Part shown: one piece after another, positions 1 to 56,814 of the stretch
How the letters are laid out: the number at the start of each line of letters is the position of its first letter
How positions within the stretch are numbered: the first letter of the stretch is position 1
Source: Candidatus Omnitrophota bacterium
Lineage (GTDB): Bacteria; Omnitrophota; Gorgyraeia; Gygaellales; JAHJCI01
Assembly (NCBI GenBank): GCA_029932935.1
Contig: JAOZPD010000001.1
Span: 1 to 63,447 of the forward strand
Direction: 5' to 3'
DNA: 63,447 bases
Translations under genes and position numbers: made by a program
The notes under the pieces: generated by a model
What the model saw: only the letters and a program-made list of their open reading frames with translations
Databases searched by the model: none
Told to the model about the DNA's origin: nothing

Positions 1-1283
1 TTATTAATCAAAAAGTCCGCACCTTTATTTATAAAATTACGGGACAATTCTGGAAAAATATCCTCAAAACAAATAAGCACAGCAAAGGCCGTCTTTGTTC
101 CAAGAACATCCTGCCCTGATGCGATTGTATCCAACTCGGACCTCTCTGATAAACTACATCCTTCGTCTAATAAAAAGGTAGTGTACTCATCCCCTGCTGT
201 AAAATTTCCGATAGGTACGACTGTATCTAGAAAACCCAAGATATTTTTAAATGGTATATATTCCCCAAAAGGTACCAAATGTATTTTATTATAATATCTT
301 ACAATTCTACCAGATTTTGATATGAGAATCGCACTGTTATAATAATTGCCATTATTCAATCTAATCGCTCCTGTCAGAACATAAATTTTATTGTTAAATA
401 TGAATTCTTCTAATTTATCAATAGAGAAAATGTCTTCGCTATCTAAAATTACAGGTAAGGCTGCCTCTGGCCATATTATTAAATCTGGTTTTTCCTCTAT
501 AGCGCTCTGAGAGAGACGCAAATATTCATCTAAAATACCCCTTCTTGCCTCCTTTCTCCATTTAATCTCTTGAGGAATATTTCCCTGGATAACTGAAATC
601 TTAATTGATTTATTAGATTTAAGATTAGAGATTCTTATTATTCGGTGAAAACCGTATCCCAGGCATAAAAATAACAGAAAGATAGAAATGGAACAAGATA
701 CAATATCTAATGTATATCTCTTTCTTTTAATAGCGAATAATATACTATTAAAAACCGAATAGATAAACACATTTATGACCATAACCAAAAACGATATACC
801 CCAAACCCCAGTAATATCGGCAAGTTGTATTACTGGCAAGTTGAGATATTGCGAATAACCCAACAACACCCAGCCAAAACCGGTAAATATATGACTGCGT
901 GTATATTCAAACAATACCCAGAGTGAAGGAATGGATACTACTGACCAACGGGTATCGAGTAGTGCATATCGATTGATTACAAATCCAAATATACCAAAAT
1001 ATAAAGCCAGATATAAAATAAGCAAAATAAATCCAATAAGTGTAACATTAATTAACCAGTAGGTCGTACCAGCAAAAAAGATCAAACCACAAAAATAAGA
1101 TAATAAGAAACTATTCTTATTTTTTTGCTTTCTCAAACTGAAGAATAAAGGAATAAAGGCGACCCACGCTAAGAATTCTATATTTAAACAAGGATAAGAT
1201 ATAATTAGCAGAATTGCACTAATTAAAATAAGGACCAGATTAAAATAAATTTCTTTAGATTTAAAGATTAATAGGAGATTCAT
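1..1283 (-). CDS. lnt: apolipoprotein N-acyltransferase (Lnt); 3' end runs off the left window edge
   Basis: Absent from the ORF track because no stop lies in the window. My translation from ATG 1283..1281 gives MNLLLIFKSKEIYFNLVLILISAILLIISYPCLNIEFLAWVAFIPLFF..., a multi-TM N-terminus. The last in-window residues, ...GTKTAFAVLICFEDIFPELSRNFINKGADFLIN, look like the Lnt C-N hydrolase domain. The start overlaps the upstream stop (ATGA). Confidence 0.8.
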   Translation of the reverse strand, partial: MNLLLIFKSKEIYFNLVLILISAILLIISYPCLNIEFLAWVAFIPLFFSLRKQKNKNSFLLSYFCGLIFFAGTTYWLINVTLIGFILLILYLALYFGIFGFVINRYALLDTRWSVVSIPSLWVLFEYTRSHIFTGFGWVLLGYSQYLNLPVIQLADITGVWGISFLVMVINVFIYSVFNSILFAIKRKRYTLDIVSCSISIFLLFLCLGYGFHRIIRISNLKSNKSIKISVIQGNIPQEIKWRKEARRGILDEYLRLSQSAIEEKPDLIIWPEAALPVILDSEDIFSIDKLEEFIFNNKIYVLTGAIRLNNGNYYNSAILISKSGRIVRYYNKIHLVPFGEYIPFKNILGFLDTVVPIGNFTAGDEYTTFLLDEGCSLSERSELDTIASGQDVLGTKTAFAVLICFEDIFPELSRNFINKGADFLIN

Positions 1284-1501
1284 CGTCCGCAGGTAGAGCA
1301 ATTACGACTTGTACATGAGCTGCAGTTTAAATTTGAGGTAATATTACCCTGGGAGTCTTTACTAAAGTGGGCAAATACGGAGAATAAACGACTAATCTTG
1401 GAAGAATGGCAATCGGGGCAGATAATTCTTTCGTGATTATTCCTTATTAATAACTCGAATTTCGTATTACACTGATTACATCTATATTCGTATATCGGCA
1501 T
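1280..1501 (-). CDS. FmdB-family zinc-ribbon protein
   Basis: 73 aa. The MPIYEYRCNQCNTKFE start plus a second CPDC pair is the FmdB-type CxxC...CxxC ribbon. Cys-rich tail. Translationally coupled to lnt. Confidence 0.75.
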   Translation of the reverse strand: MPIYEYRCNQCNTKFELLIRNNHERIICPDCHSSKISRLFSVFAHFSKDSQGNITSNLNCSSCTSRNCSTCGR

Positions 1502-1503
1502 AT

Positions 1504-4458
1504 CTATCTACCATGACATTTCTTATATTTTATTGGTTTACCAGTCTTAGGATCAATTGCACCACAAGGACACGGATCATTCCTACCGACCTTAGGGTAT
1601 CTCTGCGTGGACTCCTTTCGATGATAACTAGGTTGTACAGCCTCAGGCTCATTGAATGCACTTACCAATCTGTCCTGTGATGTGTGAAAACGAGAGGCTT
1701 CCGGATGTAACATCTCTTGCTCAGTCAATCTAAATACGCCTTTAACCCTCTCTTGCGATACTGGCTGAATCTTAAAAAGCATCTCGATCGCATCTTCTTG
1801 AATAGAATTTATCATCTGGTCGAACATTATAAACGCCTCACGTTTATATTCGATTAAAGGATCGCGCTGACCAATTGCCCGCAAACCAATACCCTCTCTT
1901 AAATCATCCATCGCATAAAGGTGGTCCTTCCATTTACTATCAATAATTTGCAAGAGTATCATACGTTCAAAATGTCGCATTGTCCCTGAGCCGATTTTAT
2001 TCTCTTTTTGCCTGTAAGTTTCACTCAATATATTATAAATTTTCTCTCTAATTCGCTCATAAGATAGATTGGTTAAGTCCTGTTTATCTATTCTGAGTCC
2101 GAATTTTAAATATAAAGCATTAATCAATCCAAGAAGATCATATGATTCCTGTGTCGCCTGAGGCAGATAATTATCGCAAAGATTTATCACAACCTCTTCT
2201 AACATCTTTGTAATGCGCTCAGCGACTCTATCACCCTCAAGAATCTCTCTGCGTTGAGTATATATAATCTCACGTTGTTTATTCATTACATTATCATATT
2301 CAAGAAGCTGCTTTCTAATCTCGAAGTTATGCTCTTCTACGCGTCGCTGGGCAATCTCAATAGATTTGCTTACCCAAGGATGTTCAATTACCTGACCCTC
2401 CTCCAAACCTAAACGGTCCATTACTGCCATCAATCTATCCGATCCAAATAGACGCATTAAGTCGTCTTCTAAGGAAACATAGAATCTCGAAGATCCCGGG
2501 TCTCCCTGTCTACCTGAACGACCACGCAATTGATTATCGATTCTGCGTGCTTCATGTCGCTCAGTTCCCAAAACATGTAATCCTCCTAAACTCACTACCT
2601 TGCGATGCTCCTCTTCTGTTTCTCTCTTAAATCTATTTAATACCTCTCTGTATTCCTGTTCGAAATTATCCTGCTCTGTTAATTTTTTATTCCTAAGGAG
2701 ATTTTTAGCCATATACTCGGCGTTGCCACCCAGTAAGATATCTGTCCCTCTACCTGCCATATTTGTGGCGATAGTTACTGCTTTGTATCTTCCTGCTTGA
2801 GCTACAATCTGAGCCTCCTGCTCATGATATTTAGCATTGAGTACCTGATGAGGTATCCCTCGCCGTTTTAACAATTCAGAAAGATGCTCAGACTTCTCAA
2901 TAGAGATAGTTCCCACCAATACCGGACGACCCTGATTATACAGAGTAACTATCTCTTCAACTACAGCATTGAACTTTTCCCTCTCAGTTTTATAAACACA
3001 ATCAGGAAAATTTGTACGTATAAGGGGACGATTAGTAGGCACTACTACTACGTCCAGCTGATATATTGTCTTAAACTCCTGAACTTCAGAAAAGGCAGTC
3101 CCCGTCATACCGGCTAATTTTTCATACATCCGGAAGTAATTCTGGAAGGTAATTGTAGCTAAGGTCTGATTCTCACGCTCAATCTTCAATCCCTCCTTGG
3201 CCTCAACTGCCTGATGTAGTCCATCCGACCAACGTCTACCTGGCATAAGTCGCCCTGTAAATTCATCAACAATAACCACCCGTCCATCTTTAACTACATA
3301 ATGTACATCGCGTTTAAAATTTGGACCGTGTGCGCGTAATGCCTGGATAATATGATGCCTCCAATCCATCGTGTTAATATCGTGGAGATTATCCACGCCT
3401 AACATAGAACAAACTTTAGCTTCACCCTGTTCGGTTAAGTGAGCCGTATTAGCCTTCTCATCAATAATATAATCATAACCAGAGGATAAATCCTCACCTC
3501 TATATTTTGCAGCAACCTCATCACGCTCAAGTATAACTCTTCCTTTTAAACGGGGAACAATCTTATTAACAATATAATATTTCTCTGTTGATTCCTCAGC
3601 AGGCCCTGAAATAATCAACGGGGTACGTGCTTCATCAATAAGTATGGAATCGACCTCATCAACAATAGCATAATAGAATGGGCGCTGTACTAAATCTTCA
3701 TGTGAATATTTCATATTATCGCGCAGATAGTCAAATCCAAATTCATTATTTGTGCCATAGGTAATATCGCAGGCATAAGCCTCTTTCCTTGCTACATCAT
3801 CCATATCATGCTGAATAATCCCCACCGTTAATCCCAGAAAATTATAAATCGGCCCCATCCATTCTGCATCTCGTCTGGCAAGGTAATCATTCACTGTAAC
3901 TATATGAACACCTCGCTTTAAAAGTGCATTAAGATAAACTGCCAACGTCGCCACCAAGGTTTTGCCTTCACCGGTAGCCATCTCGGCAATCTTACCCTCG
4001 TGTAATAAAACACCACCAGCAATTTGGACATCAAAATGTCTCATCCCAACGGAGCGCTTAGCCGCCTCCCGCACAACAGCAAATGCCTCTATCAGAATAT
4101 CGCTGAATATTTTATTACGGGTAAATTTTAACTTTTCTTTTATCTTCTCTCGCTCTTGAGGCATCGCCACGGTAGAAAGCATTTCTTGCAGATCAATAAT
4201 CTCGCTTTGGTATTGGCGACTCTTGACATTGACATGTTCGATAAACTCTTCGGTCTTACTGCGTAGACCTGCATCGGAAAGACTAGCCATCTTGGGCTCA
4301 AGTCGATTTACCGCATCTACAATAGCGGCCAACTCTACCATTTTATTTATTGAAGAAACAGGCATCTCTGAATGTAAAACAATATTAACATTGGGATATT
4401 TACGTTTAATAATATTCTGTTTCCTTAACAATATTGAATTCTTAATAAAACTTAACAT
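1504..4458 (-). CDS. secA: preprotein translocase ATPase SecA
   Basis: 984 aa. Walker [18 protein letters not shown]-like [19 protein letters not shown], and the C-terminal zinc-binding tail CPCG...KKCHGR. The N-terminus is about 22 aa longer than E. coli SecA before the LEPxMxxLSD motif, so the start is uncertain. Confidence 0.96.
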
Positions 4459-4475
4459 CGTGAAGTTATAAAATT

Positions 4476-5595
4476 TTATTTTAATGTGTTTATTATTTTG
4501 ATTCTTTGATATTTCAAATACGCCTCCATGAAACCATCGAGTTCTCCATCTAACACAGCATTGACGTTACCAACTTCATATTCGGTGCGATGGTCTTTTA
4601 CTAAACTATAAGGATGCATTATATAAGAACGGATTTGACTACCCCATTCAATCTTCTGTTTTGTCCCACCAAATTGACGAGCAAATTTCTCTTCTTTCCT
4701 TTGCCTCTCTAATTGATAAAGACGTGCTTTTAAAATTTTTAAAGCAGTCTGTTTATTCTGATACTGAGAACGCTCGTTTTGGCATTGAACAACAATACCG
4801 CTGGGTAAATGTGTAATCCTCACTGCAGAATCGGACTTCTGCATATGCTGTCCACCCGGACCAGAAGAACGATATGTCTCAATGTGCAAGTCTTTGTCTT
4901 CAAGTATAATTTGTACATCGTTCTCGGTTTCGGGAATTACATCTACAGAAGCGAAAGATGTGTGTCTACGCTTATTTGCGTCGAAAGGAGAAATACGCAC
5001 CAAGCGATGAACGCCTTTCTCTGACTTAAGATATCCATAAGCGTATTCTCCTTCAATTAAAAAAGTAATATTCTTTATTCCCGCCTCCTCACCTACCAAT
5101 AAATCTGTGGATTTATATCTATATCCCTTCTTCTCTATCCAGCGACTATACATCCTGAAAAGCATCCCTGCCCAATCGCATGCCTCGGTTCCCCCAGCGC
5201 CAGCATTGATACTCATAATAACATTACAATGATCAAACTCTCCACTCAAAAGAGTTCTAAATTCCAACTTCTCCAAGTCCTGAAGGAGTTTATCTGTTGT
5301 TTTGTTTATATCTGCAATTAAATCCTTGTCCTTATCTTCCAGAATAGAGAAGAGCTCACGCAGTTCTTTATATTTAGAATGTAACTCTTCCCAGGGGCAA
5401 ACAGCTGCCTTAAGAGACTTAATCTGGTTAACCACCTGAACGGATTTTGCATTATCCTCCCAAAAATCAGGACTGGCCATCTGCTGAGACAACCGGGAGA
5501 TTTCCACCCTCTTATTATCTATGTCAAAGATAACCTCGCAGATAAATAAGTTTTTTTTCAATCTGATTCAATCGCTCCTTAATTCCTTCTAACAT
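4476..5595 (-). CDS. prfB: peptide chain release factor 2, requires programmed +1 frameshift
   Basis: The upstream frame starts at ATG 5595 (SD GAAAGGAG) and reads [23 protein letters not shown], then hits in-frame TGA (5526..5524). A +1 shift continues [12 protein letters not shown]... into the long ORF. SPF and GGQ motifs are present ([23 protein letters not shown]). The ORF-track start at 5561 is a TTG artefact. Confidence 0.93.
5523..5538 (-). other. prfB programmed +1 ribosomal frameshift site (CTT TGA C) with upstream internal SD-like GAGG
   Basis: The minus strand reads CGA GGT TAT CTT TGA C. This has the same architecture as the autoregulatory RF2 frameshift site in E. coli and most bacteria. 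Confidence 0.9.
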
Positions 5596-5615
5596 ATATA
5601 TCTCCTTTCATCTGA

Positions 5616-6689
5616 TTATGCTCCCCTTATACCTTTTAACATTAACGTGAATTCATCCTTATTGTCAGCTACGCTTGTCGCCACCTCTTCACTAACCTTA
5701 CCCTCCCTGACCAGCCTCAATAATGATTGATTAAATGAACACATACCGAAAATATCTCCCTCTTCAATAAAACGCGGAATCTCCCAAACCTTCCCTTCTC
5801 GAATAAGGCGGGAAAGCGTAGGTGTAAGTAGCATTATCTCATAGGCTGGTATACGACCGCCTGCATCCTTACGGGGCAAGAGCCTTAATGAGATAACCCC
5901 CTTCAGCAATAGAGATAACTCAGTCCTTATTTCCTCATGTTGATACAAAGGAAAAAAATTCATAATTCTTTCTATACTCTGGGCGGCATTCACTGTATGC
6001 AGAGTACTAAGCACCAACACCCCTGTCTCTGCAGCGGTAATAGCTGCTGACATTGTTTCATAATCGCGGATATTCGCTATATAAATAACATCTGGACTCT
6101 GTAAAGTAAACGCCCTTAAAGCTACTGGATAGGAAGCTACATCACGAAATAACTCCCGTTGATTTATAATTGAATTTTTATCTTGAAAGATAAACTCAAT
6201 CGGCTCTTCAATTGTTAGAATGTGTTTATGAGCATTAATATTAATATACTCAATCATGCTGGCAATAGTGGTTGATTTGCCGGAGCCCATACTCCCAGTA
6301 AGTAAAACCAGGCCACGGCTTTCCATAGCTAATTGTTTAAGCACAGAGGCAGGTAAATTAAGCTCTTCCATTGTCTGGGTAAGTGGAGCTATACTTCTTA
6401 TTACAATCGATGGCCAATTGCGTTGCCTAAATATACTCACTCGAAAGCGACGTTCTAACTCGGGTAAATATAAAGCGAAATCAACATCCAAATTCTTAAC
6501 AAAAAATTCCCTTAATTCTTCAGAAAGCAAATCCTTAAGAGCCTGATTAATATCATCGCTACTCACTATTTCGTTACCCACGCTAAGAACCTGAGAATTA
6601 ATACGCATCCGTACAGTACCACCGGCACGATAAAACATATCGGAGGCCTCTTTTTCAACCATTAATTTCAGATAATCCTTTATCTTCAT
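5616..6689 (-). CDS. PilT-family type IV pilus retraction-like ATPase
   Basis: 357 aa. N-terminal ASDMFYRAGGTVRMRI, Walker A GSMGSGKSTT, and Asp/His-box-like regions typical of PilT/PilU. No other pilus genes are nearby. Confidence 0.82.
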   Translation of the reverse strand: MKIKDYLKLMVEKEASDMFYRAGGTVRMRINSQVLSVGNEIVSSDDINQALKDLLSEELREFFVKNLDVDFALYLPELERRFRVSIFRQRNWPSIVIRSIAPLTQTMEELNLPASVLKQLAMESRGLVLLTGSMGSGKSTTIASMIEYININAHKHILTIEEPIEFIFQDKNSIINQRELFRDVASYPVALRAFTLQSPDVIYIANIRDYETMSAAITAAETGVLVLSTLHTVNAAQSIERIMNFFPLYQHEEIRTELSLLLKGVISLRLLPRKDAGGRIPAYEIMLLTPTLSRLIREGKVWEIPRFIEEGDIFGMCSFNQSLLRLVREGKVSEEVATSVADNKDEFTLMLKGIRGA

Positions 6690-47359: not shown

Positions 47360-47428
47360 TTATCTACGGCTTCTCTTCTTCTTGGCAGTTCTCTTCTTTG
47401 TTTTCTTCTTGGCCTTTTTCTTAACCAT
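47360..47428 (-). CDS. candidate 22-aa Lys/Arg-rich micro-protein
   Basis: My translation: MVKKKAKKKTKKRTAKKKRSRR*. SD GGAGGTG (rc of 47435-47441) lies 6 nt before the ATG, and an intrinsic terminator follows about 54 nt downstream. It falls below the ORF-track length cutoff. Confidence 0.45.
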   Translation of the reverse strand: MVKKKAKKKTKKRTAKKKRSRR

Positions 47429-47607: not shown

Positions 47608-48147
47608 TTACGTCCTCTGTTTAATAATAGACTGTGCTAAATTCTCCAAGTTAAATTTAAATCTCAGCGGTGTCTGTCCGCTCTTTGTCTTACTCTCTAT
47701 CTCCACCCAGAGTTGATACCTCCTACCAGTTTTTATTTTATCTACTGGTAATTTGAGTTTAAACAGCTCTCTGGTTAACGTACCCTTTGGTTTCTTAATC
47801 TTCGTCCTCTTGCCGAATGTAATCAGTCCATTCTGTTTAGTTATAGGGTAAGTGGCATCCTCCTGCATCGTAGAGAATACCGTCTCTCTTGTTTTATAAT
47901 GCAATCTACCCAAGCCTTTACCCACTAAAAGGACGTCGTTAATCTTTGGTTTCTCGGCATACATTCTCGCCTCAACCAAAACCTCCATGACATCCTTTAC
48001 AAGATATGCCTCTATTGCCACCGTACTATTCCTGAACTGCTTACCCTCTCGGTTCAAGAGAATACGCTCTATCTCCTCCTGAGCTGAGCAAAGACCAAGA
48101 ATAGAAAAGAAGAAAATTACCCATGTCAAAATAAAATTACCTCTCAT
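47608..48147 (-). CDS. secreted protein of unknown function
   Basis: 179 aa. Signal peptide MRGNFILTWVIFFFSILGLCSAQ. No motif recognised. Confidence 0.55.
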   Translation of the reverse strand: MRGNFILTWVIFFFSILGLCSAQEEIERILLNREGKQFRNSTVAIEAYLVKDVMEVLVEARMYAEKPKINDVLLVGKGLGRLHYKTRETVFSTMQEDATYPITKQNGLITFGKRTKIKKPKGTLTRELFKLKLPVDKIKTGRRYQLWVEIESKTKSGQTPLRFKFNLENLAQSIIKQRT

Positions 48148-48292
48148 TCACAACTTCCTTTCCAGGATTAAAACCGGAGAGAAGGTATCAACAGAACTAT
48201 ATAAGTATCTCAAGATCTAAAAATCCCCCCTCCCCTAAAACAACATAGAGATAAAATTATATTATCACCTAGAAGAAACGACAGATATGGAT

Positions 48293-48691
48293 TTAAACGG
48301 CTGACTGGCTGGAAAAGATCTTATTTATCATCTGTAATATCTCTTCCCCTGTGGCGGGTTTAGCAATCACATAACGCCTTCCAGCCTTTCCGCCCAATGT
48401 CTCCTCTTCCTGCTTGGTAAGGATACCTGTTAAAAATATTATGGGAATGCTCGTCGTAGAAGGCTCTGTTGTAAGGACAGCGGCAACTTCACTGCCGCCC
48501 ATATCAGGCATAACTATATCCAGAATAATCAGATCGGGCTTCAACCTCATGGCCAATTCCACGGCCTCTTTACCCTTTGTAGTAGCAACGACTTCATAAT
48601 TAGCGCGCTTAAGAATATTACTTAAATGAACTAATACCTCTGGTTCATCATCAACAACCAATATTTTTTTTCTGTATTCACCTTCCATCAT
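48293..48691 (-). CDS. single-domain response regulator
   Basis: 132 aa REC domain: KILVVDDEPEV, DLIILDIVMPDMGG, IIFLTG, AKP. Confidence 0.88.
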   Translation of the reverse strand: MMEGEYRKKILVVDDEPEVLVHLSNILKRANYEVVATTKGKEAVELAMRLKPDLIILDIVMPDMGGSEVAAVLTTEPSTTSIPIIFLTGILTKQEEETLGGKAGRRYVIAKPATGEEILQMINKIFSSQSAV

Positions 48692-48807
48692 TTGTAAAAT
48701 ATCATCAATTATTTACTCTGTCAAGATTTTTCTAACATATTTGTCTTATATTAATTAAATTTTTTATAAAAAGTGTTGATAATATAAAAGTAAATTAAAA
48801 AATATAA

Positions 48808-48842
48808 TAGACAAGATATACTAATTTTAATATAGTATATCT
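48808..48842 (+). promoter_or_regulatory. putative promoter (TAGACA-N17-TATAGT) overlapped by a 10-bp perfect inverted repeat (operator-like)
   Basis: TAGACA at 48808-48813 and TATAGT at 48831-48836. The IR AGATATACTA (48814-48823) / TAGTATATCT (48833-48842) has a 9-nt spacer. It lies about 60 nt upstream of the DUF885-like gene. Confidence 0.4.
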
Positions 48843-48902
48843 GGCAGTCAGAAACAGCTAAATTATCATAAAACCATAAAACAGATTTATCAAAGTATAA
48901 TT

Positions 48903-50558
48903 ATGGATAAAAGACTTATTGCCTTATCAGAAGAATATTTCCAATATCTGGCTTATGCATATCCCGTAATGAGTCTGTCTGACGAATTCTATTTCATGCC
49001 CCGTTCCAACAAAGCAATATATCATCTGGATTATCTGGACTGTCTAGACAAAGAGAAGATAAAACAGGATGTTTCTTGTATAAAAACACTCAAGATTCGC
49101 CTAGAGAATATATATACAGAGAATATGGAGTTAGAAACACAGATAGACTGGCAGCTTCTCAGACAAAGCATATCAGCATATCTATGGGAATTCGAACGGA
49201 TAAAAATATGGCGTCTAGACCCGAATATCTATCTTAAGATCATTATCCTAGGAATGGACCAAATCTTAAATAAGGTTTGTATGATTAAAGATAACATCCA
49301 AGAGGAATTTGCCTATCGAATACAACAGATCCCACGATTACTAAACGAGGCCAAAGTAAATCTCACAGACATACCTCTTTTCTATAGGGATACGGCTATA
49401 AGTATAATTAAATCAATCATCGATTACCTCAGGGGTCAATCCTATCTAATCACAATAAAAAGATTGGATTCTTCTACATTCGCAAGATTAATAAAAGAGT
49501 CCATCCATTCTCTATATGACTTTAAAAGCTTCCTGGAGAAACGCCCGGTTAAAGATACATTTATTAAAGAAAGGGAGCTATTGCGGGATTTGTTAATTGA
49601 TGTCTTTTCGTATAAACGCGACCTTGCAGAAATCTTCGAGATAGCCTCGGAAGAATATCAAAATACCCTGGATGAATTAAAAAGAATGGCCAATGCAATT
49701 CAGCCGCCAAAAACATGGCAGGAGGTATTAATCGGCTATAAATTAAAAGTAAAGACTAAAAAAGACCTACTGAACCTGTATCGCAAGCAGATTTTCAATC
49801 TAAAGGATTTCCTTATAAGATACGAATTGATTACTATCCCGGAAGTCCAAGATATTACGGTTGAGGAAACCCCCAGTTACCTAAAACCAATCAGAGCCTC
49901 CGCCTCATATAGTTGCCCTATAAGCAAAGACAGAAGAGAAACAGCATTTTTTTATGTAGCTATTGACTCTAATAAAAATAAAAAAATACAAGAAATATGG
50001 GAGAATATCCATCAAGAGTACATATTTATTACTGCGCATGAAACCTATCCCGGACATCACTTGCTAGATTCGGTAAGACGCGGCATTCGGAATCCCATTC
50101 GCCAACAGATCGAATCCCCATTCTTTTATGAAGGATGGGCTTCCTATGCAGAAAGGATAATCAGGGAATCTGGATATATAAATAATACTGTACAAAAGAT
50201 GATAGGTTTAAGAAGAGAGGCATGGAGGGCAATCAGGGCAAAATTAGATATAGGAATAAGATTAAATAAGATAAGTCTCTCTGGAGCAGCGGAGGAATTG
50301 CATCGGTTGGGATATGCTCCCCGTAGAATCAAGATTATGCTTAAGCATTACCTGCTTACATATGGATACCAATTGTGTTATACTATTGGTAAATTTGAGA
50401 TTGAAAGATTAGCAGAAAGATTTATTTCCCAACTGGGAATAAGGAATTTCCATAACTGCTTAATAGAGGCAGGAGAGATTCCTTTTGAGCTAATTCAAAA
50501 AAGGATGGAGAGATTATGCGAGGGGAATTCTCAGGATATCATTCAGAGTGGAATCTAG
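48903..50558 (+). CDS. DUF885-like putative metallohydrolase
   Basis: 551 aa. The ITAHETYPGHHLLDS motif matches the HExxPGHH signature I associate with DUF885. No signal peptide. Confidence 0.65.
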   Translation: MDKRLIALSEEYFQYLAYAYPVMSLSDEFYFMPRSNKAIYHLDYLDCLDKEKIKQDVSCIKTLKIRLENIYTENMELETQIDWQLLRQSISAYLWEFERIKIWRLDPNIYLKIIILGMDQILNKVCMIKDNIQEEFAYRIQQIPRLLNEAKVNLTDIPLFYRDTAISIIKSIIDYLRGQSYLITIKRLDSSTFARLIKESIHSLYDFKSFLEKRPVKDTFIKERELLRDLLIDVFSYKRDLAEIFEIASEEYQNTLDELKRMANAIQPPKTWQEVLIGYKLKVKTKKDLLNLYRKQIFNLKDFLIRYELITIPEVQDITVEETPSYLKPIRASASYSCPISKDRRETAFFYVAIDSNKNKKIQEIWENIHQEYIFITAHETYPGHHLLDSVRRGIRNPIRQQIESPFFYEGWASYAERIIRESGYINNTVQKMIGLRREAWRAIRAKLDIGIRLNKISLSGAAEELHRLGYAPRRIKIMLKHYLLTYGYQLCYTIGKFEIERLAERFISQLGIRNFHNCLIEAGEIPFELIQKRMERLCEGNSQDIIQSGI

Positions 50559-51904
50559 GCAGCCCTGGCGGATGGGATTATCAACGGATGGCTCAGGAGA
50601 TAGGAAGATATTCCTGGCAGATATTAAAAGATAAAGCCGACATTAATATAGAACTGGATTTCGAGCACCCTATTCTCAATCCCGTACCTGCATTTGCTAA
50701 TCTGCTCATTGAAGCGCACAGGAGTAATTTTGGAAGAGAGAAACCCTCTATAGCATTAGTGGCTGAACAGGAGACACTTGATAAGGTAGGCGAGAATATC
50801 CACTTTGTGCAATATTTGAATAGCCTACCGGACATCTCCGCATATCTAATCAGCCCAGATAAACTGGAATTAAGAAATGATCAGATATTTGCGGACAATA
50901 ATAAGATTACATTGTTATTCTTAGACTTTAATAATAATGTAATCGTGAGATTAAAAAAGAGATATAACCTCAAACCACTAATCAAGGCAATAAAAATGGG
51001 TATGGTGATAAACCCTCGCGGCATGGAACCAATCGGAGCTAAGGGTGTATTTGAAGCAATCACATCAGAGTATAAAAACATAGTAAACGAGACCACGCTG
51101 AGAAGGACCCCCTGGACAAGACAATTTTTCCATCGCTCTACCTTGGGTCCAGATGGAGAATCAATTCCAGATTTGATTCAATGGGCAAGAGATAACTGGG
51201 AGAACATAATTTTAAAACCGGTACATGGATACTCTGGAAAAGGCATTATCATTGGTCATAAAGAATCCAACAGAGATAAGTGCATACAAGATGCTTTAAA
51301 TAGTGGGAACTATATTATCCAAAGACTTATCCCGCTTACTCTCTGGTCAGAAGAATTTCCTTACATCGATAAAAAAGACAAATCCCTCTTCCTAAAATCC
51401 TGGCAGACAGACTTTCGCTGTTTCATAACCAATAAGGGGTTAATTGGATTTGTTACTCGATTTGGGGGCATCCCTACCAATGTAGGCTCAGGTGGAGGGG
51501 TACAGAGTACAGCAATCCTACGTTCAAATATAACAGCAAAAGAGGCGATTAAGAGAATAAATGAAGCTATCATGAGTTTAGGATTTGATTTTATTGCTCA
51601 ATTGCAAGAACAGATAGACAAGAAATCTACCAAGATGGGGAATGTTTATCTATTGGGTCCTATTATGTCTACCTTAAGACCCAGGATAATCACACCTGGA
51701 CATGTTCTAAGTTTACAGGCCTATGCCAAAAACCTATGGGATGATGCGCTGAAATTAGAGTCACTGTGGAGAGAAGGGAAGTTAACACAATATGTCTGTA
51801 TAAGTAAAGAGGAAGAGGAAATCGCCCGTCTTAATCCCTGGAACGGACAGGCGGCTCTTATAGCCTCTGATGGATTATTTAATTTTGTAGATGACTATGA
51901 TTAA
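50516..51904 (+). CDS. ATP-grasp amidoligase of permuted (CP-type-2 / eukaryotic-GSH-synthetase-like) topology
   Basis: 462 aa. ILKPVHGYSGKGIIIG (phosphate-binding loop), YIIQRLIPL (hinge) and GFVTRFGGIPTNVGSGGGVQSTAIL (cf. the GGLTRV...N.S.GGG...T motif of circularly permuted ATP-grasp proteins). SD GGAGAG precedes ATG 50516. It overlaps the upstream gene by 43 nt. Confidence 0.5.
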   Translation: MRGEFSGYHSEWNLGSPGGWDYQRMAQEIGRYSWQILKDKADINIELDFEHPILNPVPAFANLLIEAHRSNFGREKPSIALVAEQETLDKVGENIHFVQYLNSLPDISAYLISPDKLELRNDQIFADNNKITLLFLDFNNNVIVRLKKRYNLKPLIKAIKMGMVINPRGMEPIGAKGVFEAITSEYKNIVNETTLRRTPWTRQFFHRSTLGPDGESIPDLIQWARDNWENIILKPVHGYSGKGIIIGHKESNRDKCIQDALNSGNYIIQRLIPLTLWSEEFPYIDKKDKSLFLKSWQTDFRCFITNKGLIGFVTRFGGIPTNVGSGGGVQSTAILRSNITAKEAIKRINEAIMSLGFDFIAQLQEQIDKKSTKMGNVYLLGPIMSTLRPRIITPGHVLSLQAYAKNLWDDALKLESLWREGKLTQYVCISKEEEEIARLNPWNGQAALIASDGLFNFVDDYD

Positions 51905-52667
51905 AGTAAAAAGGGATTGGTGGAAGAATTTCTTTAACCATATATATTTAATCACCGATGCCCGCAGCGTAAAGAACAAATCCCTTACCTGTCGGGAGGT
52001 AGATTTAATAGAGAGATCTCTAAATTTAAAAAGGAGCGATCGTATACTTGATTTATTTGGTGGACAAGGAAGACATTCGATAGAATTGGCCAGACGCGGA
52101 TACCGTGACTTAAGCGTACTTGATTACTCTGAGTATCTAATTAATCTGGGAAGGCGTCTAAGCAGTAAGGAAAACCTAAAAATCAATTTTTATCGTGCAG
52201 ACGCGCGTACTACCGGTTTAAAAAGTAACGACTATTCTGTTATTATTGTAATGGCTAACTCCTTTGGTTACTTTCCCAGAGAGAAAGACAATCTTAAGGT
52301 ACTACAAGAGATTCATCGTCTCCTTAAGAAGAGGGGGAGATTGCTTCTGGATATAGCTAATCCTATTTATGTAAAAAATAATCTTGGTTTAATCTCATGG
52401 CATAGAATAAGAAATATCCTTATCCTGCGCAGCAGAGAGATCAGAAATAATCTGGTCAAGACGCGGGAGATTGTAATCTCCCAACAGGATGGATTAATTA
52501 GAGACGAATGCTACTGCGAATATCTCTATGAACAGGATAAAATCAGGCAATTACTCCGAAAGATAGGATTTAAAAATATAAAAATAAATAACAAACTGTC
52601 CCTGCATAACAAAAAAGGAGATTATGGCCTTCTTAGTTCAAGGATGATTATTACAGCTAAGAAATAA
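51891..52667 (+). CDS. class I SAM-dependent methyltransferase
   Basis: 258 aa. Motif I ILDLFGGQGRHS, an acidic post-I residue (VLDYS), and VIIVMANSFGYF. It overlaps the upstream gene by 14 nt. Confidence 0.8.
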   Translation: MTMIKVKRDWWKNFFNHIYLITDARSVKNKSLTCREVDLIERSLNLKRSDRILDLFGGQGRHSIELARRGYRDLSVLDYSEYLINLGRRLSSKENLKINFYRADARTTGLKSNDYSVIIVMANSFGYFPREKDNLKVLQEIHRLLKKRGRLLLDIANPIYVKNNLGLISWHRIRNILILRSREIRNNLVKTREIVISQQDGLIRDECYCEYLYEQDKIRQLLRKIGFKNIKINNKLSLHNKKGDYGLLSSRMIITAKK

Positions 52668-52694
52668 ATGTGTTTATTTAGAGATAAAAAATTC

Positions 52695-52723
52695 TTGACA
52701 TATTATTTATAATAGAATATTAT
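52695..52723 (+). promoter_or_regulatory. near-consensus sigma70 promoter (TTGACA-N17-TATTAT) for the 27-aa ORF
   Basis: TTGACA at 52695-52700, a 17-nt spacer, and TATTAT at 52718-52723, followed by SD AAGGGAGG (52731-52738). Confidence 0.55.
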
Positions 52724-52747
52724 TCTTTTGAAGGGAGGTTATAAGGA

Positions 52748-52831
52748 ATGAAGGCAAAAAAGATAAATAAAACCACCAAGTCTAAAAAGAAACTTTCCCG
52801 TTATTGCCGTTCCGGTAGAGTACTCTGGTAA
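52748..52831 (+). CDS. candidate 27-aa Lys-rich peptide with C-terminal YCRSGRVLW
   Basis: My translation: MKAKKINKTTKSKKKLSRYCRSGRVLW*. It has its own promoter and a strong SD 9 nt upstream. Its stop lies 10 nt from the convergent radical SAM stop. Confidence 0.5.
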   Translation: MKAKKINKTTKSKKKLSRYCRSGRVLW

Positions 52832-52840
52832 TATTATATT

Positions 52841-54364
52841 TTAATATAGCTGATTGCCCCTTTTACCCACCGGGTCAAATCCAAAGAGCTCTTCTAAACG
52901 GTGGGGTATTCTTTCCGACAGAATAGCTAAACTGGCAATAGCCAGTTCCAACTTCTCCCGAAACAACTCACAGCTTCTTTCATATGGTAAGGCCGGGTCT
53001 CCCCGGAAATAATAATTCATATTTAAGCAAGAACCGGTTGAACGGCATAGACTAAACAATAAACATTCTCTGCAATTCTCACGCTGTTTCCTCACGCTTT
53101 CCAGAAAACTGTTATATTTATCTATATCGAGTCCGTCTCGTACATTGCCAAAATTGAACCTCTTTATTCCCAAAAAAGATGTGCAGGGATAGATATTCCC
53201 ATCAGCAGAGACCGCTAACTGTCCTCTTGCAGCCGGACAGCCACCCGCAAGCTCATGGTTATAATATAGTCGTTGCATCAATTTAAAGAATCTATTAAAA
53301 AACGTCCTTCTATAATCCAGGAATCCCTTTGAGGATTCATCGATATAAAGTAAGGCCAACCTTTCGTATTCTTTAAATAATCTCTTGTATTGCTGCTCAG
53401 TATGAAAAAAAACAGACTCTCTCTTAGGGCTAATTCTATGACAAGCATCCTCGCTCTCAAAAAGCTCAATCCTCTCAAAGCCTAAATTCCTTAAGTTATT
53501 GTATAACTCTACCATATCTGTATAAAAGGGTGTAACGGTACTGCGTCCCACAAGCCTCTTGATTATTCTCTCCGGCATATTTCTTAAGTTAGACAATATC
53601 GTATCAAAGCTTCCATTCCCATCTTTAAACGGCCGATTGTTATCCTGGATACATCTCGGTCCATCGATGCTGACAGCTATCTGGACACCCTTATTAATCA
53701 ACTCCTCAGCTAACGAGGGCGTCAGAAGCGTACCGTTTGTTGCCAAGAGAAAATGAAAGCTTACATTCCAGCTAGATTCATTTCCCCTGCAATAATCGAC
53801 TGTTTTAGAAAGTGTCTGGAGATTCATCAAGGGTTCTCCGCCGTAGAAATCCACAACCAGATTTCTATCTTCTCCACAAAGATTAACCAACATATCCACT
53901 GCCATCCTGGCTATCTCAAAGGACATATCATCATCTACTGTGCTTTTAGAAACAACGAATTGATTATCCTGGAACTGCTCTGCAGAATATCTGCCCTGGT
54001 CATTCCAGCAGTAAACACAATTTAAATTGCACTTAGAGGTCAAGTTAAGCGTCAGATCAGTAATATTAGCAATAATGCCCTCCTCTTTATCCAGATTATC
54101 CTTCCTTACTAAAGGGAACAGGCTTATTATGCTATCAGGGATATTCTGAGATTTTGCTAATTTTATTGCCTCTTCAGGTGTAGGATGCTTATCTAAATTT
54201 ATAATCTCTGTATTCCATCCTTGCAAGGCTAAATATGTATCATCGGATATCTCAAAGAAATCCCCCGTACAGGTCGAGATTGCAAAACAACGATTCAGTT
54301 TTTTAAAAATGTATGCTGGTAACAATCTATCCTTCTGCCTTAAAGGCTGAGTAGCATGATTCAT
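52841..54364 (-). CDS. radical SAM/SPASM-domain enzyme with ~105-aa N-terminal extension (peptide-maturase-like)
   Basis: 507 aa. CNLNCVYC (CxxxCxxC), FYGGEPLM, and SPASM-type clusters GGCPAARGQLAVSADGNIYPC and CRECLLFSLCRSTGSC. The N-terminal extension has the same length class as RRE domains in sactisynthase-type enzymes. Confidence 0.85.
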   Translation of the reverse strand: MNHATQPLRQKDRLLPAYIFKKLNRCFAISTCTGDFFEISDDTYLALQGWNTEIINLDKHPTPEEAIKLAKSQNIPDSIISLFPLVRKDNLDKEEGIIANITDLTLNLTSKCNLNCVYCWNDQGRYSAEQFQDNQFVVSKSTVDDDMSFEIARMAVDMLVNLCGEDRNLVVDFYGGEPLMNLQTLSKTVDYCRGNESSWNVSFHFLLATNGTLLTPSLAEELINKGVQIAVSIDGPRCIQDNNRPFKDGNGSFDTILSNLRNMPERIIKRLVGRSTVTPFYTDMVELYNNLRNLGFERIELFESEDACHRISPKRESVFFHTEQQYKRLFKEYERLALLYIDESSKGFLDYRRTFFNRFFKLMQRLYYNHELAGGCPAARGQLAVSADGNIYPCTSFLGIKRFNFGNVRDGLDIDKYNSFLESVRKQRENCRECLLFSLCRSTGSCLNMNYYFRGDPALPYERSCELFREKLELAIASLAILSERIPHRLEELFGFDPVGKRGNQLY

Positions 54365-54419
54365 AATCTTCCCTTTCTATTAATTTATATCAATCTACTC
54401 ATAAGAACTAATCTTTACC

Positions 54420-54815
54420 CTAACGATTCAATGCCATCTTTATAAAATCCTCTATGGCCTGCCTGTCTGCCTCGGATATCTTTGCAAAATAAATTCCTAA
54501 ACGATGTTCATTGGCCTCTAATAATATATTATTCCTTACTTCACCTACTATCTCCATGGAACGAATACGATTGCTCTTCTCAGCATAGTGATTAATTAAA
54601 GTGAATCTTATCAAGAGAAGGGTTGAAACAGGAATATCGCAATTTGTCAAAATAGCCATCCCCACTCCGCTTAAATCTAACATCAGTGCGTTGACATCCT
54701 TATTACCTATCCGTACGCGTATCTCTATGGGTTTATCAACTTTATAAATAACTACAAACTCAGCCCTTACTCGCGGAGACCTTCTTCTCTCTGGCCCACT
54801 ATATATATCAACCAT
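54420..54815 (-). CDS. PilZ-domain c-di-GMP receptor
   Basis: 131 aa. RRRSPR (RxxxR) and DLSGVG (DxSxxG). Strong SD AGGAGG. Confidence 0.8.
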   Translation of the reverse strand: MVDIYSGPERRRSPRVRAEFVVIYKVDKPIEIRVRIGNKDVNALMLDLSGVGMAILTNCDIPVSTLLLIRFTLINHYAEKSNRIRSMEIVGEVRNNILLEANEHRLGIYFAKISEADRQAIEDFIKMALNR

Positions 54816-54845
54816 AACCTATCCTCCTATTTATTACTTAGTGAT

Positions 54846-54874
54846 ATTTTAATATTTTGTTTGATGCTTTTCAA
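54846..54874 (-). promoter_or_regulatory. putative promoter (TTGAAA-N17-TAAAAT) for the PilZ-radical SAM operon
   Basis: Minus strand: TTGAAA (54874..54869), N17, TAAAAT (54851..54846). A 10-bp palindrome GGATATATCC (54884-54893) lies just upstream. Confidence 0.45.
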
Positions 54875-54913
54875 GACAAATAAGGATATATCCCTAAATG
54901 CAACCGAGGAATC

Positions 54914-55933
54914 TCAAGGGCATGTAACGCCAGATAATTCCTCTATTGCCTTTTTGATTCTCAACATTCTCTCGGGAGATGACGGATGGGTAGAGAGATA
55001 ATTTCTAATCATCGAACGAGGAATCTCGATGGCAAATCTTTCCTGAAACGAGGTACATGCACAAGGATTATAACCGGCGTAATAAACAAACCGTACACTA
55101 AAATAATCCGCCTCTCTCTCTAAATCGCGAGAGTAATGTGCCTTGAATACCTCGGCAGTACGCATTACCAAATCACCTGTCCCGGGAGCAGCCTCATCAG
55201 CAATTATCCCTAAGGGGATACCAATAAGAAGGGACAGGAGTGAGGTTATCTGTGATTTAGACACATGAGCACGAACAAAATGCGCTAACTCATGTGCCAA
55301 TACCGCTGCAATCTCATCATCCGATCTTACAAAATTCATCAATCCATAGGTAACGTAGATTGCATTGTTACTTGCGGCTGCGTTGACCTCCTGCACATCA
55401 ATCATGGCGATTGGTACATTTATAGGTATCGAACCGGCACTTAAAATTATATCTCTGCGTAGATTACCCCTTAGAACCTGCAGCTTAACTGGCTCTCCTA
55501 CATTCAGATTATGAAGACAACGATTAAAATCACCTACAGAGTGAACGGCTACATTATTAATCGAGACCAACACATCTCCCGGCACCAATCCTGCCTTTTT
55601 AGCGGGTGAACCGTCAATAACCACTACTAATACCAACCCTCTCTCTACAGTTAACCTGTATAACCTCTTAAGATATTTATCGATAGGACTTACAAATATA
55701 CCTATATAAGGCTGGGGTTTGTCTGCAATCTTAATCTCCTCCTGGGGAATATTACTAATTAAACGATAGCCGATATTACTGACCTTATCCAACTGTTTTA
55801 TACGGAACTCCAGAGACCTCACCATTAACTCTTCGCTTGCCTCCCGAATCTCCTGCTTGCTTACCGACGGACCAGTAATAGTAGCGCACCCATTGGTAGA
55901 TAACAATGCTATAAACAATAGAATAAATCTCAT
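54914..55933 (-). CDS. M48-family zinc metalloprotease lipoprotein with PDZ domain
   Basis: Start at ATG 55933 (SD AGAGGGG) gives MRFILLFIALLSTNGCA with a lipobox. PDZ (GLVPGDVLVSINNVAV) and HELAHFVRAH (HExxH). The ORF-track start is TTG. Confidence 0.85.
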   Translation of the reverse strand: MRFILLFIALLSTNGCATITGPSVSKQEIREASEELMVRSLEFRIKQLDKVSNIGYRLISNIPQEEIKIADKPQPYIGIFVSPIDKYLKRLYRLTVERGLVLVVVIDGSPAKKAGLVPGDVLVSINNVAVHSVGDFNRCLHNLNVGEPVKLQVLRGNLRRDIILSAGSIPINVPIAMIDVQEVNAAASNNAIYVTYGLMNFVRSDDEIAAVLAHELAHFVRAHVSKSQITSLLSLLIGIPLGIIADEAAPGTGDLVMRTAEVFKAHYSRDLEREADYFSVRFVYYAGYNPCACTSFQERFAIEIPRSMIRNYLSTHPSSPERMLRIKKAIEELSGVTCP

Positions 55934-56199
55934 ATATCCCCTCTTCTCTGAGAATAGCAAAGCACAATTGCCAGTAATATCGAAGCAGGTAATATCACTA
56001 TAAAATCAAACTCATTTTTAATCTTTAAACTAAAAATAGATAAGGTAAGGAATACGATATACCAGAGGATTTTCCTAAAGATATGCAGGCGGAACCCATC
56101 GCAGAAACATAATCCCATATATAAGGCAAATAGACTTAACGTCAACCACTGCCAGAAGATTGTATGGCTCATAATTTTTCTCTTACCTGGCACAGCCAC
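55930..56199 (-). CDS. small membrane protein of unknown function
   Basis: 89 aa or fewer, with three hydrophobic segments. Its stop overlaps the M48 gene start (ATGA). Confidence 0.4.
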   Translation of the reverse strand: MAVPGKRKIMSHTIFWQWLTLSLFALYMGLCFCDGFRLHIFRKILWYIVFLTLSIFSLKIKNEFDFIVILPASILLAIVLCYSQRRGDI

Positions 56200-56241
56200 A
56201 AAAACTATCTGAAGCCAAGCATTAACAGAAGACTACACGAA

Positions 56242-56814
56242 TCATCTCCTTTTCTCTGTACCGATTAATGATAATGCCTCAGCCCGGGTCTTCTCATTCT
56301 CTTTAAAAATACCGCGTACTGCCGAGGTTACCGTTAAAATGCCAGGCTTCTTAACCCCTCTAAAAGACATACACAGGTGTTCAGCCTCCACTACAACCAT
56401 AACACCACGTGGCCTGAGTTTCTTCATAATAATCTCGGCAACTTGTGTAGTAAGCCTCTCCTGAATCTGAAGTCTTCTGGAAAGAATATCTACAACCCGG
56501 GCTAATTTACTTAAACCAGTAACCCGCCCATCCTTAGGGATATAGGCAATATGAGCCCGTCCGATAAAGGGAATGAGATGATGCTCACAAACAGAATATA
56601 ACGGAATATTCTTCAGTAGAATTATCTCATCGTGCTTCTGATCAAGAATAACCTCAAGCTCCCTCTCGGGGCTCTGCCTAATACCTGAGAAGATCTCCTC
56701 ATACATCTCAGCTACACGATTAGGCGTCTCCTTTAAATCCCTCCTATCAGGATCCTCCCCGATTGCTATCAATATATCCTTTATTGCCTCTCTTATCTTT
56801 TTCTTATCCATCAC
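56242..56814 (-). CDS. folE: GTP cyclohydrolase I
   Basis: 190 aa. [20 protein letters not shown] and QERLTTQ motifs. Confidence 0.93.

Follow-up and report, generated by a model that had tools for sequence, protein, structure and literature searches.

A conserved 27-residue lysine-rich peptide linked to a radical SAM/SPASM enzyme in Omnitrophota and Elusimicrobiota: a probable two-gene peptide-maturation cassette

Introduction

Short peptides that are made on the ribosome and modified after translation (RiPPs) are known whose maturases are radical S-adenosylmethionine (SAM) enzymes with a SPASM domain. CteB, the maturase of the SCIFF peptide CteA in Clostridium thermocellum, combines a RiPP recognition element (RRE) with an auxiliary iron-sulfur cluster that has an open site, and the leader of its precursor pairs as a strand with beta-3 of the RRE (PMC8326336). 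The acceptor residues of known ranthipeptides are Asp, Asn and Thr, freyrasin carries six Cys-to-Asp thioether bridges, and the wide conservation of SCIFF within its lineage has been taken as an argument against an antibiotic role (PMC8326336). Here we describe a Lys-rich peptide gene of 27 amino acids (aa) and an adjoining radical SAM/SPASM gene in a 63,447-nucleotide (nt) stretch of Candidatus Omnitrophota DNA (contig JAOZPD010000001.1), referred to below as the window, and compare the pair with these systems.

Other peptide substrates of radical SAM enzymes bear on the comparison. The substrate of QhpD carries functionally linked Cys and Trp residues that form cysteine tryptophylquinone, MftC processes the C-terminal Tyr of MftA, and StrB, WgkB, WprB and the three-residue cyclophane enzymes make carbon-carbon or cyclophane cross-links. 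The original prediction for this DNA, made from the letters without database searches, had drawn the system more widely, grouping a DUF885-like, ATP-grasp and methyltransferase operon, the peptide gene, and a PilZ and radical SAM operon as a candidate undescribed peptide-modification system. Comparison of related loci retains the peptide and the radical SAM enzyme as such a candidate and removes the ATP-grasp, methyltransferase, DUF885 and PilZ genes as parts of it.

Results

The peptide gene accompanies one radical SAM/SPASM family across phyla

Homologs of the window radical SAM protein number at least 358 (E <= 1e-10) and come mostly from Omnitrophota and Elusimicrobiota, the nearest named ones being all from Omnitrophota. 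The same small open reading frame (ORF) adjoins the enzyme gene in the three homolog neighbourhoods inspected first, with differing surroundings and in both orientations. Linkage was followed by two scans. The enzyme-first scan took one genome per species with an enzyme alignment, giving 77 loci in which the peptide was sought by six-frame search, and the peptide-first scan ran a degenerate DNA pattern for [YF]CRxGRVLW-stop against metagenome contigs. A peptide ending in ...LSR[YF]CRSGRVLW-stop is observed beside the enzyme gene in 37 of the 39 species-representative loci in which the enzyme is at least 56% identical. One of the two exceptions (L041) is without its upstream DNA; the other (L033) shows no peptide within 10 kb and is the sole such exception among the loci at this identity that keep their upstream DNA. 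In a paralog enzyme clade (36–41% identical), an upstream peptide is present in all nine loci retaining upstream DNA. These peptides end in ...YRAAFCRCGRVLW (type ...AAFCRCGRVLW), apart from two that end in ...TR[FY]CRSGRVLW. Peptide and enzyme therefore co-vary, the main clade occurring with ...LSRYCRSGRVLW and the paralog clade mostly with ...AAFCRCGRVLW. No such peptide was found beside remoter radical SAM relatives (33% identity or less).

In the metagenome contigs, the peptide gene was immediately upstream of and co-directional with the enzyme gene in 52 of 54 cases, convergent in one and overlapping in one, the convergent case (L129) belonging to the clade of the window. Where a metagenome match had no enzyme beside it, it was due to chance or else was a family peptide followed by less than 1.4 kb of sequence. 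Matches of the form '...HYCRQGRVLW*' were rejected as chance: at the locus inspected (L128) the match lies out of frame inside serine hydroxymethyltransferase (glyA), and four further matches share its ORF sequence. The match '...RDGRVLWW' was likewise discarded, as no stop codon follows and it is not the end of an ORF.

The peptide is linked genetically to this enzyme family across phyla. As judged from the loci compared, the conserved unit comprises two genes, the 27-aa peptide and the radical SAM/SPASM enzyme, irrespective of their relative orientation. The presence of a conserved small ORF, on which the original prediction had staked part of its case, thus holds in both enzyme clades. A full-text literature search with the motif, and with Omnitrophota or Elusimicrobia combined with radical SAM, SPASM or RiPP, returned no relevant description; the peptide/maturase pair is undescribed in Pfam, NCBIfam and the searchable literature.

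The peptide has a variable basic leader and an invariant core

The 27-mer opens with a Lys-rich leader (phi-N-K-x-x-K...KKK) and closes with the invariant C-terminal core LSRYCRSGRVLW, after which comes the stop codon. Family peptides are 25–53 aa in length, mostly 25–29, with a Lys/Arg-rich N-terminus of variable length, a net charge of about +0.38 per residue and a conserved phi-N-K/R at positions -22 to -20 from the C-terminus. Across 75 distinct tails there is no variation in Cys(-8), Arg(-4), Val, Leu or the last Trp, and hardly any in Arg(-7) and Gly(-5); position -9 is Tyr or Phe, and position -6 is occupied by Ser in the main family and by Cys in the paralog one. The identical core is encoded by 36 distinct 45-nt sequences: Arg is written with either CGN or AGR codons, Ser with TCN or AGC, and Leu with CTN or TTR. 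More than 100 loci conserve the protein while its codons vary synonymously, which places the 27-aa ORF far beyond chance. By this signature it is a real, translated gene, as the original prediction had maintained, and its amino-acid sequence is under very strong purifying selection.

The near-consensus promoter and strong Shine-Dalgarno site described in the original prediction are both present. The TTGACA-17-TATTAT element, matching at 11 of 12 positions, is the best promoter-like site within an 8.5-kb scan (48000–56500) in which 33 such sites were observed and 26.8 expected. All five convergent loci (window, L001, L039, L008 and L013) have TTGACA and, about 17 nt further on, a TA..AT hexamer, equally far from the peptide ATG in each. 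A GGAGG-like site precedes the ATG in 100 of 101 distinct family peptide genes, GGGAGG lying 9 nt before the ATG in the window. A search with five family peptides (E <= 10) matched no Pfam or NCBIfam model, and a profile built from 17 peptides retrieved 26 called proteins, all unnamed or 'hypothetical'. Every one of these relatives is at least 30 aa, a size that most of the peptides do not reach, which explains why gene callers miss the family.

The enzyme belongs by architecture with RRE-bearing radical SAM/SPASM maturases

The maturase matches PF04055 (E 1e-13) and PF13186 (aa 376–434). The cysteines of its CX3CX2C motif, C112, C116 and C119, do not vary in alignments A1 and A3, and neither do seven SPASM cysteines (C376, C394, C431, C434, C440, C446 and C465) that align with those of CteB. 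In an AlphaFold2 (AF2) model with an overall predicted local distance difference test score (pLDDT) of 87, the N-terminal extension contains three strands (17–22, 25–30 and 36–39) and three helices (41–55, 63–72 and 77–80) at pLDDT 82–97. This extension of about 100 aa, which the original prediction put at roughly 105 aa and considered to be of RRE size, is on the model an RRE and aligns with that of CteB. CteB is also the closest solved structure (PDB 5WGG; profile E 7e-62 over residues 7–468), the profile alignment beginning at CteB residue 6 and hence taking in the CteB RRE. The fold match is nearly full length, with a template modelling (TM) score of 0.79–0.83 at 26% identity.

The best NCBIfam scores, in bits against the curated cut-off, are PapB 229/340, nif11-type 219/519, SCIFF 211/425 and QhpD 200/453; the PapB model (NF047865) matches aa 101–458 at E 6e-68, and the 'not_ScfB' model reaches 195 bits against a cut-off of 855. 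The same scoring behaviour is observed for a paralog-clade enzyme and for an Elusimicrobia member. The enzyme has the features of the peptide-modifying radical SAM/SPASM-with-RRE class, namely CX3CX2C, a SPASM domain with cysteines for two auxiliary Fe-S clusters, the RRE and a linked short peptide. Its sequence assigns it by architecture to this class and, within it, to what appears to be a new family, closest on profile scores to CteB/SCIFF, PapB and QhpD, all three of which form thioethers. Features specific to the family are a disordered insert (aa 121–143), the invariant motif ELFESEDACH, which is not in CteB, TFFNRFFKLMQRLYY and a conserved C-terminal tail, DPVGxRGNxLY.

The remaining genes of the island are neighbours of the cassette

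Every neighbour of the cassette in the window was compared with 82 loci by tblastn. The DUF885, ATP-grasp and methyltransferase genes overlap by 43 and 14 nt, and on this ground they are read as an operon. The trio occurs with the cassette only in L001/L006, L039 and L129, the closest relatives, whose enzymes are 72–75% identical. It is absent within 10 kb from the remaining ~45 cassette-bearing genome loci and from the other metagenome cassette loci. The ordered trio also stands alone, without radical SAM gene or peptide, in L083 (5379–9178; a 1.8-Mb Omnitrophota genome) and L084 (5206–9293; a 3.4-Mb genome). The ATP-grasp protein has 1921 homologs (E <= 1e-5), 53–77% identical among the 120 best. 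This 462-aa protein has marginal ATP-grasp sequence matches only and belongs to no Pfam family; its model (pLDDT 88) has an ATP-grasp fold nearest to eukaryote-type (homo)glutathione synthetase (TM about 0.45). The original prediction of an ATP-grasp amidoligase is therefore upheld as regards the fold, on the model, and abandoned as regards a role in this peptide system, the protein being glutathione-synthetase-like and missing from ~45 loci.

The window PilZ protein has canonical motifs for binding cyclic di-GMP (RRxxxR in PERRRSPRVR, DxSxxG in LDLSGVG), and its gene is flanked by those for an M48/PDZ protease and the maturase. In L001 the gene for the enzyme comes straight after the one for the M48/PDZ protease. 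No PilZ gene was detected 5' of the enzyme in any other locus by tblastn, the sole other PilZ-like match being weak (26% identity) and ~1.2 kb downstream of a paralog enzyme in L046. In L001 and L039, the closest relatives, the PilZ gene is missing from this place, so that in the window it looks like a recent insertion; it is a neighbour specific to the window, and the idea that it heads the radical SAM operon as part of the system is not supported. ORF clustering over 51 loci revealed no universally conserved cassette neighbour except the enzyme, and no protease or exporter gene conserved beside the cassette.

Confinement of the trio to the closest relatives, its standalone occurrence elsewhere, the restriction of PilZ to the window and the lack of a universal neighbour combine to indicate that the island is specific to one lineage, in which a two-gene cassette and an independent operon, together with a PilZ gene, lie side by side. 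By its gene content and order, the trio is to be regarded as an independent conserved three-gene operon, separate from the peptide cassette. The original prediction had itself cautioned that the two operons may be mere neighbours, and had listed a failure of the two to co-localise in related genomes among the results that would count against it. Trio and pair are not co-localised beyond the closest relatives, which bears out the caution and tells against the island.

An accessory B12-binding radical SAM gene follows the enzyme in some loci

An orthogroup of ~519-aa B12-binding radical SAM proteins is encoded directly 3' of the SPASM enzyme gene in 12 of ~50 genome loci (L014, L017, L018, L020, L021, L025, L026, L031, L041, L043, L044 and L054), on the same strand and at a spacing of -7 to +230 bp. 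Cassette-adjacent members are 72–87% identical to one another and ~26% identical to other B12 radical SAM paralogs of these genomes. The gene follows enzymes of both clades and, in L088 (3–950(-)), comes directly after the peptide gene. Such positions suggest that the system also exists in a version with three genes, the peptide receiving a further modification, probably methylation. The orthogroup is absent from the 63-kb window.

L018 (343–6819) contains two paralogous cassettes, one of the RYCRSGRVLW type and one of the FCRCGRVLW type, 5 kb apart, with genes for a polyprenyl synthetase, a UbiA prenyltransferase and a 398-aa radical SAM protein between them and two B12 radical SAM genes following. 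In L004, from Elusimicrobia, positions 1–5735, a few kb 5' of the cassette, contain a His-Xaa-Ser (HxsD-containing) radical SAM system that appears unrelated to it.

Features of the window

The window, a contig from a Candidatus Omnitrophota metagenome-assembled genome, is chromosomal and has most of its genes on the minus strand. The genes checked against Pfam are ordinary chromosomal ones (chemotaxis, MurJ, UvrC, ComEC and PurH), and homologs of MnmE and FolE lie just past the peptide/radical SAM cassette. All the ORFs listed by the original prediction were found where it had placed them (Table 1). The peptide and radical SAM genes are convergent, 9 nt separating their stop codons, and the peptide gene begins 80 nt beyond the methyltransferase gene on the same strand.

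Table 1. Features of the peptide/maturase locus and its flanking genes in the window
Feature	Position	Strand	Evidence
DUF885	48903-50558	+	PF05960, E 2e-46
462-aa ATP-grasp-fold protein	50516-51904	+	weak sequence matches; fold model pLDDT 88
class-I SAM methyltransferase	51891-52667	+	overlaps the 462-aa ORF by 14 nt
putative sigma-70-type promoter of peptide gene, TTGACA-17 nt-TATTAT	52695-52723	+	11/12 positions
Shine-Dalgarno GGGAGG, 9 nt 5' of peptide ATG	52733-52738	+	read from sequence
predicted precursor peptide gene, 27 aa, MKAKKINKTTKSKKKLSRYCRSGRVLW	52748-52831	+	conserved core, synonymous codons
predicted radical SAM/SPASM maturase, 507 aa	52841-54364	-	PF04055, PF13186
SPASM domain, seven invariant Cys	52955-53245	-	PF13186 match aa 376-434
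CX3CX2C radical SAM cluster motif (C112, C116, C119)	54008-54031	-	invariant, alignments A1 and A3
predicted N-terminal RRE of maturase, about aa 15-95	54080-54322	-	AF2 model and CteB profile alignment
PilZ	54420-54815	-	PF07238, E 6.5e-11

A second tiny Lys-rich ORF of 22 aa, MVKKKAKKKTKKRTAKKKRSRR, is located at 47360–47428(-), and a perfect AAGGAGGTG ribosome-binding site lies 6 nt upstream of it. None of the seven related loci scanned yielded this ORF.

Discussion

We consider it probable, with good confidence, that the locus encodes a two-gene RiPP-type cassette of a 27-aa precursor and its radical SAM/SPASM maturase, the neighbouring genes being unrelated. Linkage and co-variation suggest that the 27-mer is likely the substrate of the enzyme. 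The RRE would bind the basic leader, with phi-N-K, about 21 residues from the C-terminus, as the likely handle. The radical SAM cluster would generate a 5'-deoxyadenosyl radical that would abstract a hydrogen atom from a residue of the core [YF]-C-R-[SC]-G-R-V-L-W, and the invariant Cys, placed as in CteB at the open iron site of an auxiliary cluster, would close a single thioether ring. In the clade of the window, the peptide gene has shifted to the 3' side of the enzyme gene, convergent and with a promoter of its own. The chemistry is a question apart from the cassette: since the best profile, solved-structure and fold matches are all thioether-forming maturases and the domain order is that of CteB, we lean slightly towards a thioether, at close to an even chance. 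More speculatively, the product is probably a small, basic, modified peptide that stays with the cell, as for SCIFF, and not an antibiotic that varies and is secreted: neither a protease nor an exporter gene is conserved next to the cassette, and the core does not vary between phyla.

Several observations weigh against this interpretation. The core is without Asp, Glu, Asn and Thr, the known ranthipeptide acceptors (Asp, Asn, Thr) thus being missing, and its one hydroxyl residue, Ser(-6), is replaced by Cys in the paralog family. The C-terminal Trp, the aromatic residue at -9 and the three Arg would suit a carbon-carbon or cyclophane cross-link equally well. The enzyme scores under every curated NCBIfam cut-off, and its proposed chemistry is that of the nearest families. 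L033 (9600–10010 and flanks) encodes a 57% identical maturase and no peptide was found within 10 kb of it, even with relaxed motifs. Finally, in both independent convergent contexts (window 51891–52831(+); L002 9507–10299(-), L002/L008) a class-I SAM methyltransferase gene lies directly 5' of the peptide gene on the same strand. By BLASTP these methyltransferases are unrelated to each other (E 0.42), and either coincidence or convergent recruitment would account for their position.

The same cassette could carry out other chemistry, either a carbon-carbon or cyclophane link, such as one joining Arg or Lys with Trp or Tyr, or a processing of the C-terminal Trp in the manner of MftC, yielding a new cross-link or a cofactor. 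The invariance of an exactly C-terminal Trp, an aromatic -9 and three Arg would suit such reactions, the classical thioether acceptor is missing, and Trp-Arg cross-links made by a radical SAM enzyme exist, WprB being so described (PMC11851443). Invariance of the core across phyla is moreover reminiscent of PqqA and MftA. We nevertheless regard this as somewhat unlikely, given that the cyclophane-type models DynA, YhhB and FxsB reach 90, 89 and 65 bits in NCBIfam against 200–229 for the thioether clade, that Cys(-8) is invariant in 75 of 75 distinct tails, and that MftC, at 57 bits for the paralog P0109, is outside the 25 best families of the window enzyme; for a cofactor, peptidase, oxidase or glycosyltransferase genes are not conserved beside the cassette. 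A bolder proposal, which we hold tentatively and with less confidence than the thioether, is that the product, far from being a secreted natural product, is an intracellular modified micro-protein (binding, for example, nucleic acid or the ribosome) or a cofactor precursor. An undescribed cross-link would run from Cys, or from the C-terminal Trp, to a carbon of Arg, Val or Leu, no acidic or hydroxyl acceptor being involved, and dedicated B12 radical SAM enzymes would elaborate it in some lineages. If true, ultra-small uncultured bacteria would have a new class of RiPP whose role resembles housekeeping.

Two explanations that dispense with the two-gene cassette were also weighed. Were the island integrated, the ATP-grasp, methyltransferase, DUF885 and radical SAM enzymes would all tailor the 27-mer under cyclic di-GMP control through PilZ. 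All the genes do lie within 6 kb, the arrangement minus PilZ recurs in L001/L006, L039 and L129, the peptide gene follows the methyltransferase gene by only 80 nt on the same strand, and another class-I methyltransferase precedes the peptide in L002/L008. This reading is very improbable, however, and was rejected on the strength of tblastn over 82 loci, ORF clustering and the trio found alone. Within 10 kb the trio accompanies none of the remaining ~45 genome cassettes and none of the other metagenome ones, it is a translationally coupled operon that exists by itself in L083 and L084, its ATP-grasp protein has 1921 homologs against at least 358, at the stricter threshold, for the radical SAM enzyme, PilZ is 5' of the enzyme in no other locus, and the two methyltransferases preceding the peptide are unrelated. 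A graspetide was excluded with it: the ATP-grasp gene is absent from ~45 cassette loci, the peptide offers the ligase no acidic residue, and the fold is nearest to eukaryote-type glutathione synthetase. Least credible of all is that the small ORF arose by chance or is a non-coding regulatory element, the enzyme acting elsewhere, for example as an anaerobic sulfatase maturase (anSME). The ORF has only 27 codons, under the thresholds of gene callers, and promoter-like sites are not in excess around it. The codon analysis refutes this explanation, amino acids being invariant while codons vary synonymously across 36 nucleotide versions; the Shine-Dalgarno site is all but universal, and linkage persists through changes of orientation and position. 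A grouping with sulfatase maturases, another outcome that the original prediction had named as adverse, is not observed. The anSME models (TIGR03942/PRK13758) reach 76 bits against a cut-off of 349 and 72 against 441, the profile match to anSME begins at query position 100, so that anSME sequences do not cover the RRE present here, and a dedicated peptide is linked to the enzyme.

The favoured two-gene cassette would represent a new, well-defined peptide-maturase family, with more than 100 examples in phyla that have almost no cultured members and no curated model that names it. A core that is invariant across phyla and lacks the usual thioether acceptors, together with a poly-lysine leader, is unusual among radical SAM RiPPs, and on both these counts the chemistry may be new. 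The locus also offers a caution for genome mining, as four "RiPP-like" enzyme types are found here together by synteny alone and not as one system.

SCIFF (ScfA/ScfB, CteA/CteB; TIGR03974) is the nearest system in organization. Like the locus described here, it is a two-gene cassette of a short, highly conserved peptide and an RRE-bearing radical SAM/SPASM enzyme and is widely conserved within its lineage; CteB has the same domain order and a matching fold over nearly its whole length. The window enzyme, in contrast, scores about half the SCIFF cut-off and differs from CteB in the insertion, ELFESEDACH and tail DPVGxRGNxLY. Its peptide has one Cys, whereas SCIFF has six in about 45 residues, the core is without Thr and Asp, the leader is poly-Lys, and the hosts are Omnitrophota and Elusimicrobiota, not Clostridia. 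PapB/PapA (freyrasin; NF047865), also a radical SAM/SPASM thioether synthase, is the best-scoring curated family, but at 229 bits the window enzyme is well short of its cut-off of 340, and the core has a single Cys (two in the paralog type) and no Asp. Membership in SCIFF or PapB was therefore rejected, the curated scores not being reached, the precursor not being Cys-rich and the core having no D, E, N or T.

QhpD (TIGR03906), the maturase of the quinohemoprotein amine dehydrogenase gamma-subunit, is the fourth-best family at 200 bits and likewise forms thioethers with Cys. It differs in that its cut-off of 453 is not approached, no dehydrogenase subunit genes are nearby, and its acceptors, Asp and Glu, are both missing from the core. 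Assignment to the peptide-derived cofactor systems was likewise rejected: no accessory processing genes are conserved beside the cassette in 51 loci, as would be found for mycofactocin or pyrroloquinoline quinone (PQQ), the RRE is part of the enzyme itself, MftB and PqqD being stand-alone proteins, and the MftC score of 57 bits belongs to the paralog P0109. The resemblance to MftA/MftC and PqqA/PqqE lies in the precursor, which in each case is very short, invariant, associated with a radical SAM/SPASM enzyme and provided with key residues at or near the exact C-terminus, the last of which in MftA, as in the peptide described here, is aromatic.

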